Of a stretch of DNA of 64,000 bases, positions 23,602 through 29,998 are shown piece after piece; the first letter of the stretch is position 1, and each line of letters opens with the position of its first letter. The DNA is taken from the NCBI RefSeq assembly GCF_988243305.1, contig NZ_OZ547136.1; one strand, 5' to 3'. The notes under the pieces are model-generated. The model saw only the letters and a program-made list of their open reading frames with translations. It did no database searches and had not been told where the DNA came from. The position numbers and the translations under genes are program-made.

Positions 23602-24204
23602 ATGCTCAGAATATTCATCGTAATTATATTTATTTTCAATTTATCAGGCTGTGGATATAACGATATTCAAACCTATGATGAGCAGGTTAACGCCTCCTGG
23701 TCTGAGGTATTGAATCAATATCAACGTCGCGCCGATCTTATTCCTAATCTTGTCGCCAGCATTAAAGGTTATTCCAGCCATGAACGAGATGTACTGGAAG
23801 CCGTAACATTGGCTCGTAGCCAGGCTAATCGCGCCAGTAGCGATCTTCAGCAAACTCCGGGCGATGAACAAAAATTACAAGCCTGGCAACAGGCTCAAGC
23901 GCAGGTGACTCGCACTCTCGGTCAGTTAACGATAATTAGTGAGCGTTACCCTGAGTTAAAATCTCAGGAACTCTATCAAAATTTAATGGTACAGCTTGAA
24001 GGAAGTGAAAATCGGATTGCCGTTGCGCGAGGAAGATATATTAAAGCCATTGAACAATATAATGTCACTATCCGCAAATTCCCCGCTGTGTTAACCGCAA
24101 AGGTCATGGATTACACACCAAAGAAAAATTATTTGCCGGATGATGTCGCCGCAGTAAGTAAAGCCCCAACAATAGATTTTAGCCAGAATGCTAATGCTCA
24201 TTAA
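23602..24204 (+). CDS. LemA-family protein, predicted lipoprotein (200 aa)
   Basis: N-terminal signal with lipobox NLSGC (Cys17), followed by a LemA-like helical domain; first gene of a 4-gene operon. Confidence 0.8.
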   Translation: MLRIFIVIIFIFNLSGCGYNDIQTYDEQVNASWSEVLNQYQRRADLIPNLVASIKGYSSHERDVLEAVTLARSQANRASSDLQQTPGDEQKLQAWQQAQAQVTRTLGQLTIISERYPELKSQELYQNLMVQLEGSENRIAVARGRYIKAIEQYNVTIRKFPAVLTAKVMDYTPKKNYLPDDVAAVSKAPTIDFSQNANAH

Positions 24205-24217
24205 GCGGGGAAGTTCT

Positions 24218-25111
24218 ATGCGAAATTTTATCTTCCTTATGGCTTTCTTCTGTTCATCTGTGTTTGCCACACAAATTCCAGTACCTGAATCACCCAAGTA
24301 TGTGAATGACTTAACCGGCACATTAACAAACAGCGAAGTAAACACCCTGACCAACCAGATTAAAGCCCTGACGCAAAAAAACTACGCACAGTTGGTCGTG
24401 TTAGTGGTTGAAACAACTGGCGATGAAACCATCGAGCAGTACGCAACGCGGGTATTCGATAGCTGGAAACCGGGTGATAAAGACCACGATGATGGCGTTC
24501 TACTGTTAGTCGCCTGGCAGGATCATACCGTGCGTATTGAAATCGGTTACGGACTGGAAGGTATTATTACGGATGCACAGTCCGGGAAAATTATTCGCAA
24601 CAGTATTATTCCGGCATTTAAAAAAGGGGACCTGGCTGGTGGTTTGCAAAAGGGAATCAGCGATATTGAAAGTCGTCTGACGGGGAATAATTTAGCAACG
24701 ATAACACCGACCGATCACCCTTTGCCTTTTAGCGGTTGGTGGGCTTTGTTAGTCTGGGCGATAGTACTGACGTTTATTTCTGCCAGAGGATATATCAAAA
24801 CGCTGGGAGTAATTTGCTTCGCAGCTATTGTACTGGCCTTTGTTTTACCTATAGCAGGCTTCAGCGGAAGCTGGGGAGTACTCGCAACATTACTCTGCTT
24901 CGCCACACCGTTCCTGGCTGTCGCCATCGCTTTTACCCCCTTCGGCAAAAAGGTTCGGGATTCGATGCGTGATGCCAACCAGCCATCACGCCATACAAGA
25001 AGCAATTCTTCCTCCCACTATTCATCATCGTCATCCTCTTCATTCAACAATGACAATTTCAGCGGTGGTGGCGGTTCATCTGGTGGCGGTGGCGCTTCCG
25101 GGCGCTGGTAA
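24218..25111 (+). CDS. TPM-domain (YgcG-like) membrane protein, paralog 1 (297 aa)
   Basis: Signal peptide MRNFIFLMAFFCSSVFA, TPM-like core (GVLLLVAWQDHTVRIEIGYGLEG), 3 predicted TM helices, tail ...FSGGGGSSGGGGASGRW; 13-bp gap after lemA stop. Confidence 0.8.
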   Translation: MRNFIFLMAFFCSSVFATQIPVPESPKYVNDLTGTLTNSEVNTLTNQIKALTQKNYAQLVVLVVETTGDETIEQYATRVFDSWKPGDKDHDDGVLLLVAWQDHTVRIEIGYGLEGIITDAQSGKIIRNSIIPAFKKGDLAGGLQKGISDIESRLTGNNLATITPTDHPLPFSGWWALLVWAIVLTFISARGYIKTLGVICFAAIVLAFVLPIAGFSGSWGVLATLLCFATPFLAVAIAFTPFGKKVRDSMRDANQPSRHTRSNSSSHYSSSSSSSFNNDNFSGGGGSSGGGGASGRW

Positions 25112-25125
25112 CAAAAGGAATTGAT

Positions 25126-26274
25126 ATGCGTATTTTTCTCTTACTTCTGATGCTATGCGGTTTTCAGGTATTCGCTGAACAATTGCCTTCAGTAACTGAC
25201 TTAACCGGGACATTAACGACAGAAGAACAAACTGCTTTAACTCAACAATTACAGACTCTCGAGCAGCAAAACCACTTCCAGGTGGCCGTGTTGGTCACGC
25301 CGACCACAGGGGGCAAAAACATTAAACTTGCAGCCTCGCAGAGATACGGGGTATATCACTGGAAACCCGTTGGAGAGAAGCGATATGGCGAAGGTATCTT
25401 AATTCTCGTCGTATGGCCGGAAGGGCTGGCGTCAATGAAGATTGGACATGGACTGGAACAGATGTTGCCGCCGGAACAAGCTTCGCAAATTGTTCGTTAC
25501 CATATGCAGCCAGAATTCGAAAAAAACAATCTCTTTGCTGGATTAACGGGCGGAATTGAAAGCATCGCACAGTTTACCCATATCAAAGCGAACCTTAGCC
25601 CTTTGGATGCTTTAGCCAATCATCTGTTTGCTAATCCGCAACGTTCGCTGCCTTGTCTTGCCTGGACACTGCTGATGATCGTTGCCATCGTTGTCCTCTG
25701 GCGATTTGCCAGCCGCCCAGGGCGTGGCATATGGATGATATCGATGATTACCCCTATGGTCTGGTTTTTCTCCTTTCAGGACGATGTCATCATTCGGCGG
25801 GTATCGGTCGTTTGTTTTAGTTTATTGTTAGCAACAACCTGCAAGCAGCGTCTCGCGGTAGTTTTTAATATGTGCCGCGTATTTCCTATGATGCTGACCC
25901 CAAAAAATAAAAACGCTAAAGTGAAAAAACAAAAGAAGACTCCGCAGGTTCGTGAATCAGGACGAAATTCATTGTTTGTCGTGATGCTGATAATTATTGT
26001 GGGATGGTGCCTGGTGTTCGCCAGTAATAAAGATATTGCATTCATCTCAACAATTATTGGGTTAATTGATCATTTTATCGGCCCAATAACCATTGCTGGC
26101 ATCGTTCTGCTGATCATTGTGGCCAAATTTACTGGCAATCTTAAGCTGGGATCAGGAGAAAAAAGCAACAGGAAAACGGGGAATCGTAATGCTCATTCTC
26201 GCTCTTCGTCGAGAAATTCTTTCCGCGGTGGTGGCGGTTCTTCAGGAGGCGGCGGTTCATCCGGCCGTTGGTGA
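25126..26274 (+). CDS. TPM-domain (YgcG-like) membrane protein, paralog 2, diverged (382 aa)
   Basis: Signal peptide MRIFLLLLMLCGFQVFA, diverged TPM core (GILILVVWPEGLASMKIGHGLE), lysine-rich segment KNKNAKVKKQKK, TM helices, tail RGGGGSSGGGGSSGRW. Confidence 0.75.
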   Translation: MRIFLLLLMLCGFQVFAEQLPSVTDLTGTLTTEEQTALTQQLQTLEQQNHFQVAVLVTPTTGGKNIKLAASQRYGVYHWKPVGEKRYGEGILILVVWPEGLASMKIGHGLEQMLPPEQASQIVRYHMQPEFEKNNLFAGLTGGIESIAQFTHIKANLSPLDALANHLFANPQRSLPCLAWTLLMIVAIVVLWRFASRPGRGIWMISMITPMVWFFSFQDDVIIRRVSVVCFSLLLATTCKQRLAVVFNMCRVFPMMLTPKNKNAKVKKQKKTPQVRESGRNSLFVVMLIIIVGWCLVFASNKDIAFISTIIGLIDHFIGPITIAGIVLLIIVAKFTGNLKLGSGEKSNRKTGNRNAHSRSSSRNSFRGGGGSSGGGGSSGRW

Positions 26275-26279
26275 TCGTA

Positions 26280-27185
26280 ATGCGCTTAATCTTTATTCTA
26301 CTTGCTTTGTGGAGCCTTCCCGGGCTTGCCCAGCAAATTGCTGTGCCGGAGCTGCGCCAACAAGTGACTGATATTACTGGTACGTTAAGCACGTCTGAAC
26401 AGCAATCGCTAACGCAGCAGCTGCAGGATATTACACATAAAACACGGGCGCAGGTCGCTGTATTAGTAGTGCCGTCCACCGGAGACGATTCCATTGAACA
26501 ATATGCAGCACGCGTTTTTGATAGCTGGAAACTGGGAGATAAGCAGAGAAACGATGGTATTTTACTTCTGGTTGCCTGGGAGGAGCATGCTGTTCGTATT
26601 GAGGTTGGCTACGGGCTGGAAGGGGTGGTTACCGACCTGCAAGCGGCGAAGATTATCAGAGATATTTTGATCCCTGCCTTCAAAAGTGATGACCTGATGG
26701 GTGGATTAACACTGGCAAGCGAAAATATCGGCGCGCTTCTGTTGAATGGTGAATTATCGGAAGACAGGGGGGATTATTACAGTATCAATCCCTTTATTCC
26801 ATTATCGCTTGCTGTAATTATATTGCTGGCGGTACTTTCATATTTTATTGTTTTTACCGATCCGTCGAATTTACCCTGGATCACTCTCACTGGCGCCATT
26901 TACGGGATGGTATTCCTCTATGTTGCCGAGCCAGGACCATGGACCAATTTAATCGTTGCCTGCGGTATGCTCACGCCTTTTGCCATCGTACCACTGCTTA
27001 TTTTTTGGCTTATCGTTAATAAAAAGCTACGCGCTAAATACAAGAAGCTCGGTAAAGAAAGAGCTTCAAGAAAAGGTTCTTCTTCATCCTCTTCCGGTGG
27101 CGGCTCAAGTGGCGGAGGCTCAGGCGGTGGCTTTAGCGGCGGGGGCGGTTCTTCTGGCGGTGGCGGCGCGTCCGGTCGCTGGTAA
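26280..27185 (+). CDS. ygcG: TPM-domain membrane protein, paralog 3 (301 aa), probable counterpart of K-12 ygcG
   Basis: Signal peptide MRLIFILLALWSLPGLA, TPM core (GILLLVAWEEHAVRIEVGYGLEG), TM helices, tail GGGGSSGGGGASGRW; last gene before the terminator hairpin and eno, the position ygcG holds in K-12. Confidence 0.75.
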   Translation: MRLIFILLALWSLPGLAQQIAVPELRQQVTDITGTLSTSEQQSLTQQLQDITHKTRAQVAVLVVPSTGDDSIEQYAARVFDSWKLGDKQRNDGILLLVAWEEHAVRIEVGYGLEGVVTDLQAAKIIRDILIPAFKSDDLMGGLTLASENIGALLLNGELSEDRGDYYSINPFIPLSLAVIILLAVLSYFIVFTDPSNLPWITLTGAIYGMVFLYVAEPGPWTNLIVACGMLTPFAIVPLLIFWLIVNKKLRAKYKKLGKERASRKGSSSSSSGGGSSGGGSGGGFSGGGGSSGGGGASGRW

Positions 27186-27203
27186 CTCAACCATAAAAAA
27201 TGC

Positions 27204-27217
27204 CAGCCCGAAGGCTG
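27204..27217. repeat. Target-site duplication (left copy) of IS4 insertion, CAGCCCGAAGGCTG
   Basis: Identical 14-bp sequence directly flanks both IS4 ends (also 28644-28657); the true duplication may be 13 bp given the palindromic target. Confidence 0.8.
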
Positions 27218-28643
27218 TAATGCCGATCAGTTAAGGATCAGTTGACCGATCCAGTGGCTGTGTAAGAATCCGGAAACGCTCACTTGTTTCCGGATTTTTT
27301 TATGCACATTGGACAGGCTCTTGATCTGGTATCCCGTTACGATTCTCTGCGTAACCCACTGACTTCTCTGGGGGATTACCTCGACCCCGAACTCATCTCT
27401 CGTTGCCTTGCCGAATCAGGTACTGTAACGCTACGCAAGCGCCGTCTTCCCCTCGAAATGATGGTCTGGTGTATTGTTGGCATGGCGCTTGAGCGTAAAG
27501 AACCTCTTCACCAGATTGTGAATCGCCTGGACATCATGCTGCCGGGCAATCGCCCCTTCGTTGCCCCCAGTGCCGTTATTCAGGCCCGCCAGCGCCTGGG
27601 AAGTGAGGCTGTCCGCCGCGTGTTCACGAAAACAGCGCAGCTCTGGCATAACGCCACGCCGCATCCGCACTGGTGCGGCCTGACCCTGCTGGCCATCGAT
27701 GGTGTGTTCTGGCGCACACCGGATACACCAGAGAACGATGCAGCCTTCCCCCGCCAGACACATGCCGGGAACCCGGCGCTCTACCCGCAGGTCAAAATGG
27801 TCTGCCAGATGGAACTGACCAGCCATCTGCTGACGGCTGCAGCCTTCGGCACGATGAAGAACAGCGAAAATGAGCTTGCTGAGCAACTTATAGAACAAAC
27901 CGGCGATAACACTCTGACGTTAATGGATAAAGGTTATTACTCACTGGGACTGTTAAATGCCTGGAGCCTGGCGGGAGAACACCGCCACTGGATGATACCT
28001 CTCAGAAAGGGAGCGCAATATGAAGAGATCAGAAAACTGGGTAAAGGCGATCATCTGGTGAAGCTGAAAACCAGCCCGCAGGCACGAAAAAAGTGGCCGG
28101 GACTGGGAAATGAAGTGACAGCCCGCCTGCTGACCGTGACGCGCAAAGGAAAAGTCTGCCATCTGCTGACGTCGATGACGGACGCCATGCGCTTCCCCGG
28201 AGGAGAAATGGCGGATCTGTACAGTCATCGCTGGGAAATCGAACTGGGATACAGGGAGATAAAACAGACGATGCAACTGAGCAGGCTGACGCTGAGAAGT
28301 AAAAAACCGGAGCTTGTGGAGCAAGAGCTGTGGGGTGTCTTACTGGCTTATAATCTGGTGAGATATCAGATGATTAAAATGGCGGAACATCTGAAAGGTT
28401 ACTGGCCGAATCAACTGAGTTTCTCAGAATCATGTGGAATGGTGATGAGAATGCTGATGACATTGCAGGGCGCTTCACCGGGACGTATACCGGAGCTGAT
28501 GCGCGATCTTGCAAGTATGGGACAACTTGTGAAATTACCGACAAGAAGGGAAAGGGCCTTCCCGAGAGTGGTAAAGGAGAGGCCCTGGAAATACCCCACA
28601 GCCCCGAAAAAGAGCCAGTCAGTTGCTTAACTGACTGGCATTA
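27218..28643 (+). mobile_element. Insertion sequence IS4, complete (1426 bp)
   Basis: Imperfect terminal inverted repeats TAATGCCGATCAGTTAAGG (27218-27236) and TAATGCCAGTCAGTTAAGC (reverse complement of 28625-28643); single 442-aa transposase ORF; 1426 bp matches the recalled IS4 size; flanking direct repeats. Confidence 0.9.
27302..28630 (+). CDS. insG: IS4 transposase (442 aa from [14 protein letters not shown])
   Basis: ORF track 27284..28630; recognised as IS4-family transposase sequence. Confidence 0.88.
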
Positions 28644-28657
28644 CAGCCCGAAGGCTG
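28644..28657. repeat. Target-site duplication (right copy) of IS4 insertion, CAGCCCGAAGGCTG
   Basis: Matches 27204-27217; rejoining the flanks rebuilds a palindromic hairpin aaaaaatgccagcc-cgaa-ggctggcattttt. Confidence 0.8.
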
Positions 28658-28684
28658 GCATTTTTAAATCAGATAAAGTCAGAC

Positions 28685-29998
<1,314 letters not shown>

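Follow-up and report, generated by a model that had tools for sequence, protein, structure and literature searches.

In the stretch of DNA that we analysed (64,000 nucleotides of contig NZ_OZ547136.1, assembly GCF_988243305.1; hereafter the window), a complete copy of IS4 lies between two convergent transcription units, inside what reads as the bidirectional terminator common to both. The arrangement as a whole is very probably that of an intact IS4 in an ideal-type target terminator, with the host transcript ends replaced by the hairpins that the element carries at its own tips. The proposed course of events is as follows. IS4 would have entered, by the usual cut-and-paste DDE transposition, the bidirectional terminator between an operon of TPM-domain genes and eno, and the 14 bp that make up the loop and inner stem of this terminator were duplicated upon insertion. 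The site, to which IS4 would have been drawn for this reason, is a near-ideal target of the form AAA-N20-TTT, its core being a G+C-rich palindrome and its duplicated segment ending in CAG...CTG. The host terminator is split in the process, and the inward hairpin and T-run at each tip of IS4 would supply new 3′ ends. The eno transcript would most likely still end, ~50 nt farther than normal, as would the TPM transcript, ~100 nt farther, and the flanking genes would hardly be affected.

A complete IS4 between the TPM operon and eno

The element occupies positions 27218–28643 of the window on the + strand (1426 bp, delimited by sequence reading and checked by script), from TAATGCCGATCAGTTAAG... 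at 27218 to ...CTTAACTGACTGGCATTA at 28643. Annotated IS4 copies in many RefSeq E. coli genomes match it over the full length with 100% identity, and alignment with canonical IS4 shows neither extra nor missing bases. By its length of 1426 bp and its near-identity to the reference, the element is identified as IS4 itself, and as complete, in agreement with what the first-pass annotation of this DNA had proposed. The terminal inverted repeats are those of IS4, 18 bp long, imperfect and starting with TAATGCC. The left repeat, TAATGCCGATCAGTTAAG (27218–27235, + strand), matches the right one (28626–28643, − strand, reverse complement TAATGCCAGTCAGTTAAG) at 16 of 18 positions; the mismatches fall at positions 8-9, where one tip has GA and the other AG. 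Position 19 is also mismatched, and the match of 18/19 initially given for these repeats has to be corrected to 16/18 after comparison by script.

The sole long ORF of the element (27302–28630, + strand, from the ATG to the end of the stop codon) is intact and encodes an InsG-type transposase of 442 aa. Its translation matches the Pfam families Nterm_IS4 (3e-33) and DDE_Tnp_1 (8.7e-32) and the NCBIfam model transpos_IS4_1 (304.5 bits, for a cutoff of 115). A stretch of 15 residues fits the Y(2)R(3)E(6)K motif defined for IS4-family transposases (PMC2266710), and the element hence has the single-ORF DDE transposase, with this signature, that is expected of the family. With the ORF and both tips intact, this copy is probably competent for transposition. 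The element type is indeed active, since eight new IS4 insertions were recorded in K-12 mutation-accumulation lines (Lee et al. 2016, PMC5009759).

IS4 is found in 2686 of 5426 complete E. coli genomes. The K-12 element (insG), which is the type element of the IS4 family and belongs to its IS4 subgroup, agrees with the window copy in its length of 1426 bp, in its 18-bp tips, complementary at 16/18 positions, and in its transposase of 442 aa with Nterm_IS4, DDE_Tnp_1 and Y(2)R(3)E(6)K. The window copy differs from that of K-12 MG1655 by 5 nt (99.6% nucleotide identity) and 2 aa, residue 304 being A in the window and G in K-12, and residue 326 L in the window and R in K-12. The location is different: the sole IS4 of MG1655 adjoins nanX, while the window copy sits in the TPM/ygcG-eno terminator. 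The eno site is empty in MG1655, as the first-pass annotation had surmised for K-12.

The element is flanked by two exact copies of the 14-bp direct repeat CAGCCCGAAGGCTG, one at 27204–27217, also recovered by repeat search, which comprises the inner stem and loop of the terminator, and the other at 28644–28657. The bases bordering both copies differ, so that 14 bp is at once the minimum and the maximum repeat length and the duplication is exactly 14 bp, which settles the 13-14 bp of the earlier reading. When the flanks are rejoined by deleting IS4 and one copy of the repeat, they give AAAAAATGCCAGCCCGAAGGCTGGCATTTTT, and the wider rejoined sequence reads ...CATAAAAAATGCCAGCCCGAAGGCTGGCATTTTTAAATC... 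When a 600-nt query of this rejoined sequence was searched, at least 40 listed genomes matched it with 100% identity in their uninterrupted TPM/ygcG-eno interval, and coverage of the query reached ≥80% in 767 genomes. This identity to uninterrupted genomes proves both the empty site, which equals the flanks minus 14 bp, and the 14-bp duplication. IS4 duplicates about one helical turn of its target, and this is the case here: 14 bp in the window, 13 bp at the same site in strain GN02350, and 12 bp at the K-12 site. The usual duplication for IS4 is 11–13 bp, a range that the window exceeds by one. For the IS4 family, a target duplication of 'about 10 bp' has been given (PMC2266710).

The structure of the insertion site becomes apparent in the rejoined sequence. 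Sequence and fold place the left outer part of the terminator at 27195–27203 (an A-run at 27195–27200, then the outer stem TGC) and the right outer part at 28658–28665 (the outer stem GCA, then a T-run). Rebuilt, the site forms a hairpin of 13 pairs, in which an 8-bp G+C stem is extended by A-U pairs from the A-run to the T-run. Its folding energy is −20.3 kcal/mol for the + strand and −20.7 kcal/mol for the − strand, values that no sequence among 200 shuffles equalled. The genes on either side are convergent. On the + strand, a ygcG-type TPM-domain ORF with a Gly/Ser-rich tail (26268–27185; Pfam TPM_phosphatase, 9.1e-38) is the final member of a LemA + 3xTPM operon and has its stop codon 10 nt upstream of the A-run; its counterpart in strain FDAARGOS_1288 is annotated 'TPM domain-containing protein'. 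On the − strand, eno (enolase, 28685–29983; Pfam Enolase_C, 2.1e-144, and Enolase_N, 6.3e-59; annotated eno in related genomes) converges with both the TPM operon and the IS4 transposase gene. A G+C stem-loop between an A-run and a T-run, with convergent genes around it, is what characterizes a bidirectional terminator, and the insertion site is read as a bidirectional rho-independent terminator that serves both the TPM operon and eno and that IS4 has split in the region of its loop. That the convergent TPM and eno genes have such a terminator in common, and that IS4 splits it, had already been stated in the first-pass annotation and is borne out at the level of sequence. A search of 26500–29500 against Rfam returned no RNA family match, even at E≤1, and hence no known sRNA or riboswitch is indicated around the insertion site.

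Target preference and occupation of the eno hairpin

The site had been treated initially as a curiosity, an incomplete view given that it is of the type that IS4 typically targets, AAA-N20-TTT around a G+C hairpin. The target in the window is AAA-TGC-[CAGCCCGAAGGCTG]-GCA-TTT, and that of the resident IS4 of K-12, which has a 12-bp duplication, is AAA-CAC-[CAGAACCAAGAT]-GCCTA-TTT. Both are thus pseudo-palindromic AAA-N20-TTT sequences, the form that is said to be the published IS4 target consensus, derived from an insertion in the pheST attenuator. The duplication in the window also ends in CAG...CTG, as in most of the other IS4 flanks examined.

The target was tested on a larger sample by scanning metagenome contigs for the 18-nt IS4 tip and tabulating the outward flanks. 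For IS4 proper, AAA was present at −24 to −15 in 16 of 17 unique flanks, and the last four flank bases were mostly G-C-T-G (76, 64, 70 and 82%, respectively, in the 17 flanks). The preferred target derived from this profile is therefore AAA-N3-CAGC...GCTG-N3-TTT, and the eno terminator fits it almost perfectly. When all elements with the 18-nt tip were considered, an A-run was found in 101/133 unique flanks, versus 22/133 in the control region; 114 of these 133 flanks belong to elements whose interior is <75% identical to IS4. In composition the flanks read as half a terminator: A reaches ~70–75% at −19 to −16, positions −15 to −8 are rich in G+C, positions −7 to −5 in A/T, and positions −4 to −1 in G. 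For elements recovered with both ends and an exact duplication, rebuilding the target gave in most cases a perfect A-run/hairpin/T-run structure with a folding energy of −17 to −30 kcal/mol, and the duplications of both-ended elements with the same tip measure 10–14 bp.

This pattern agrees with that of De Palmenaer et al. Elements of the IS4 family, and other IS, target extragenic palindromes (PMC1525189), and ISRm22 (IS4 family), IS1397/ISKpn1 and IS621 insert into REP/BIME units (PMC1525189, PMC2266710). These palindrome-seeking elements share with IS4 a taste for short, G+C-rich intergenic palindromes, with conserved target arms outside the duplication. However, the IS4 targets found here are A-run/hairpin/T-run terminators and not REP units. 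A further element directed to palindromic or structured DNA is IS231A, which inserts at GGG-N5-CCC flanked by A/T tracts.

We counted occupied eno hairpins in the 5426 complete E. coli genomes, with a coverage threshold of ≥80% and one query for each orientation. The query for the window orientation was the right junction (100 nt of IS4 and 100 nt of eno flank), and that for the opposite orientation a synthetic junction with IS4 inverted at the same base. The IS4|eno junction was found as in the window in 77 genomes, and with IS4 inverted at the same base in 84, IAI39 and CE10 among them. Taking both orientations, the hairpin is occupied by IS4 in 161 of the 5426 genomes, that is, about 3% of all genomes and about 6% of those carrying IS4, a count that partly reflects clonal shared descent and not separate events throughout. 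For the wrong orientation, the nearly palindromic target allows the alignment to continue over no more than ~22 nt of flank (61% coverage), and the two sets are hence separable. The alternative that these 61%-coverage matches were other loci with eno-like targets was ruled out, as they correspond to the opposite-orientation insertions at the eno site. RefSeq annotates the occupants with an 'IS4-like element IS4 family transposase' between the TPM-domain gene and eno. The insertion is thus already present and annotated in public genomes, and is an ordinary event for IS4 rather than a novel one. It is also barely conceivable that an assembly artefact or chimera put IS4 at this site: IS elements are common sites of misassembly and nothing more specific favours such an error, while the duplication and the canonical tips are exact and the identical arrangement recurs in independent complete genomes.

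The occupants differ from each other in several respects. They share the same hairpin with the window and most of them also the junction base, and their IS4 alleles vary by 1–5 SNPs. Four of the strains compared have IS4 in the orientation of the window. FDAARGOS_1288 (14-bp duplication, CGAA loop) has identical flanks, the closest to those of the window, yet its IS4 differs from the window copy at 5 positions, the same five as in K-12. In strain 20 (14 bp, CGAA loop) IS4 differs by 1 SNP, and in O121 201805972, whose 14-bp duplication has the CGGA loop allele in both copies, by 4 SNPs. GN02350 has the 13-bp duplication (AGCCCGAAGGCTG), a SNP in the flank and 5 SNPs in IS4. The opposite orientation is found in 2018-10-1CC, with a 14-bp duplication CAGCCTCCGGGCTG, a TCCG loop and an IS4 without differences from that of the window, and in IAI39, where only the eno-side flank is present, with a TTCG loop, and IS4 differs by 2 SNPs. 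For the 24 kb surrounding the insertion in the window, the best genome in the collection is 98.3% identical over 97%.

In IAI39 the far (ygcG-side) flank is gone and a truncated phosphodiester glycosidase gene adjoining corA stands in its place, which points to an IS4-mediated rearrangement. We considered whether the orientation found in this strain could result from an inversion between IS4 copies, and ruled it out: recombination inside the IS keeps each flank on the same IS end. It cannot swap the joins between flanks and ends, and IAI39 therefore represents an independent insertion.

The same reasoning bears on the idea that there is no hotspot and that all occupants go back to one ancient insertion, passed on by descent and recombination. 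Many of the 77 junctions indeed show 100% identity across 200 nt, and the matches include clonal series. However, IS-IS recombination cannot interconvert the two orientations, duplications of 13 and 14 bp are found at one hairpin with loop variants in both copies of the duplication, and the IS4 alleles differ between occupants, all of which makes a single origin highly improbable. The differences in orientation, duplication length and loop allele mark at least four or five independent insertions into the hairpin. A single clade with identical duplication and orientation, which would speak against a hotspot, was looked for and is not what the genomes show. Comparison of these junctions identifies the eno terminator hairpin as a recurrent IS4 hotspot, occupied in both orientations, and closeness to the ideal target would account for its repeated, independent use.

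Recurrence could also be taken as a sign that the insertion is adaptive, that is, selected for a change in the expression of eno or the TPM operon, or in mRNA stability. The repeated occupation of the same hairpin in unrelated backgrounds is what such selection would produce. Nevertheless, target preference fully accounts for the recurrence, the same flank profile being found at unrelated loci and for unrelated elements. Besides, the two orientations are about equally frequent (77 versus 84), the site is occupied in only the small shares of genomes and of IS4 carriers given above, and the empty site is widespread, at 100% identity in the listed genomes among the 767 mentioned before. We thus regard an adaptive origin as very unlikely and retain target preference as the explanation.

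Predicted transcript ends after the insertion

The split deprives incoming transcripts of the 8-bp G+C stem and of the U-tract, and they retain only CAGCC-N4-GGCTG. This residual 5-bp hairpin has a folding energy of −6.3 kcal/mol alone and −7.3 kcal/mol in context (z = −0.97, no better than shuffled sequences), and is followed by UAAUGCC instead of a U-tract. The U-tracts left after the split face transcripts leaving IS4.

Both tips of IS4 carry terminator-like hairpins that face inward. At the right tip, the terminator scan and folding reveal a hairpin at 28607–28639 on the − strand, overlapping the right inverted repeat (GCCAGTCAGTT AAGC AACTGACTGGC, then TCTTTTT on the − strand). It faces eno, starts 4 nt inside the tip and reads GCCAGUCAGUU-AAGC-AACUGACUGGC, then UCUUUUUC. 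With 11 pairs and −17.5 kcal/mol it is the best terminator-like site in the 2.2-kb scan, and its tail UCUUUUUC (UCUUUUU) is shorter than the U-tract of the host terminator. At the left tip, inverted-repeat search, folding and scanning point to a hairpin at 27268–27301 on the + strand (ATCCGGAAAC / GTTTCCGGAT, with an 8-nt loop), whose T-run ends at the ATG of the transposase gene. This one faces the TPM operon from 50 nt inside the tip, as AUCCGGAAAC-N8-GUUUCCGGAU followed by U7. Its stem is 11 bp long, with −14.6 kcal/mol for the core and −20.6 kcal/mol in context (z −5.7); the intact host stem, taken without its A-U extension, has −14.6 kcal/mol. The first terminator scan missed the left-tip site because the extension of the stem consumed the T-run, and the site comes from a separate scan together with folding.

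Inward terminator-like sites are not a peculiarity of this copy. Of 95 unique ends that share this tip, 46 have such a site at ≤130 nt from it, in comparison with 11/95 on the opposite strand and 11/282 random segments of the same loci. This enrichment, about 4-fold over the opposite strand, suggests that inward tip terminators are a selected feature. The 3′ ends of eno and of the TPM operon are most likely relocated ~50 and ~100 nt into IS4, respectively, without substantial read-through.

The opposite outcome would be a loss of effective termination, in which the TPM operon reads into the transposase gene in sense and eno reads into IS4 in antisense, affecting 3′ ends, mRNA stability or the activity of IS4. 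The weakness of the residual 5-bp stem and the UAAUGCC that follows it favour this outcome. Furthermore, eno is a highly expressed gene, for which even leaky termination would matter. On the other hand, strong hairpins with T-runs face inward only 4 and 50 nt inside the tips, sites of this kind are about four times as frequent as on the opposite strand when the elements sharing this tip are taken together, and the insertion is tolerated in both orientations in 161 complete genomes. IS4 insertions in gal are strongly polar, and this polarity fits with terminators inside the element. Loss of termination is hence a possibility to which we give about one chance in four, and a relocation of the 3′ ends by roughly 50–100 nt appears likelier than read-through. 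We infer that the tip hairpins terminate transcription in vivo, and likewise that the insertion is nearly neutral for the flanking genes. The first-pass annotation was right in that each side keeps a short stem, the residual 5 bp, and loses its U-tract; the weakened termination of both transcripts that it drew from this is its least supported point, as the inward tip hairpins make a relocation of the ends likelier on prediction.

The left hairpin may have a further role. A match to a sigma-70-like promoter consensus, TTGACC-16-TGnAAGAAT, lies upstream of the transposase gene (27242–27269, + strand); the promoter scan gave this one match, versus 1.8 expected by chance. The candidate −10 element of this match forms part of the 5′ arm of the left-tip hairpin. 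Native transposase transcripts would as a consequence lack this arm, and only transcripts coming from outside could form the hairpin. In having a hairpin just upstream of the transposase start, with a 5′ arm that overlaps the candidate −10 element, the left end of IS4 resembles IS10/IS50-type ends, whose structures shield the IS from impinging transcription. In contrast to these ends, both IS4 tips consist of a hairpin and a T-run, so that termination, and not only occlusion of the ribosome-binding site, is predicted. The left hairpin is therein a candidate shield against outside transcription into the transposase gene.

A possible strategy of IS4 and related elements

For the window itself the finding is of little importance, since expression of the flanking genes is predicted to be barely affected. 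It has more bearing on how such sites are used and annotated. As the eno terminator is a recurrent hotspot, finding IS4 at the ygcG/TPM-eno terminator says little about common descent until orientation, duplication length and IS allele have been compared as well. Likewise, annotators should not take a split hairpin for the loss of the eno terminator before checking for terminators inside the IS.

The set of elements with the same tip comprises full-length IS as well as MITE-like derivatives of 154-239 bp in environmental metagenomes.

A wider hypothesis, which we advance tentatively and consider rather unlikely as yet, is that IS4 and this wider set are dedicated terminator-seeking transposons, which enter A-run/hairpin/T-run terminators at the loop and inner stem and carry inward tip terminators to replace the one they split. 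In the literature searched we found no description of such a 'safe-haven with self-supplied terminators' strategy. The combination of family-wide terminator targeting, tip terminators and MITE-like derivatives is possibly under-described rather than new, and the family-wide pattern could merit a dedicated comparative study. If the hypothesis were true, the insertion would be transcriptionally quiet for the host and the transposase gene would be shielded, and the eno site would be one case of a general strategy.

The queE-eno interval and its surroundings

The interval between queE and eno is polymorphic, as seen when positions 23602-27185 of the window are compared with the comparison loci L125 and L002. 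In the window and in FDAARGOS_1288 a LemA gene and three TPM-domain genes lie between queE and eno, whereas O121 and K-12-like strains carry only yqcG and ygcG. The C-terminal Gly/Ser-rich tail of the last TPM gene varies between strains, and this variability accounts for a drop in coverage when the locus is compared between genomes; strain 2018-10-1CC also has an IS1 interrupting the TPM gene. Among 5426 complete RefSeq E. coli genomes, the best match to the 24 kb at 20000-44000 was 98.3% identical over 97% of the segment. All five best-matching genomes carry IS4 at the eno site, and several O55:H7 strains (approximately 97.4%) appear among the matches listed after them.

FDAARGOS_1288 has the flanks closest to those of the window, with IS4 at the same site and identical junctions, but its IS4 is the K-12-type allele, which differs by 5 SNPs from the copy at 27218-28643. 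Identical junctions around different alleles imply that IS4 inserted there independently or that one IS4 copy was converted by another. In IAI39 (NC_011750.1, 3331158-3336357) the eno-side flank of IS4 is retained, and on the other side the TPM operon is replaced by ysgD, corA and a phosphodiester glycosidase gene that is truncated and abuts the element. This arrangement points to a rearrangement between IS4 copies; this genome has 15 IS4 matches.

Other elements with the IS4 tip

The outward flanks of the 18-nt IS4 tip, TAATGCCRRTCAGTTAAG, were tabulated in the metagenome contigs (L004-L123). This tip is common to many elements with interiors unrelated to IS4: 114 of the 133 unique flanks belong to ends less than 75% identical to IS4 across the next 60 nt. 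The half-terminator profile (A-run, G+C stem, loop and G-rich end) is also present in the flanks of these elements.

Tips of the IS4 type are also found on MITE-like elements of 154-239 bp, located at L014:3091-3244, L023:623-777, L057:1277-1472, L076:1615-1853 and L083:4318-4477, and in L094 (155 bp) and L109 (166 bp). Folding predicts long hairpins for them (-79 to -123 kcal/mol), and Pseudomonas-REP-like palindromes of the GGGAGCGAGCTTGCTCGCGAT type occur in several of them. Exact duplications of 10-12 bp flank those at L023, L057, L076, L083 and L109; four of these five targets, once rebuilt, are near-perfect bidirectional terminators, and that of L023 lacks an A-run and forms a less stable hairpin.

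Features of the element ends

The left end of IS4 contains three GATC (Dam) sites within its first 34 nt (window 27225-27251; IS4 coordinates 8, 19 and 31), the third immediately 3′ of a -35-like TTGACC. This cluster is reminiscent of the ends of IS10 and IS50, which are under Dam control.

In the window, inward-facing terminator-like hairpins with a T-run lie at 27268-27301 (+) and 28607-28639 (-). Among the comparison loci (L001-L127), 46 of 95 unique element ends carry a terminator-like hairpin followed by a T-run, facing inward and no more than 130 nt from the tip, as against 11/95 on the opposite strand and 11/282 in random segments. This excess suggests that the inward-facing hairpin is a conserved feature of elements sharing this tip.
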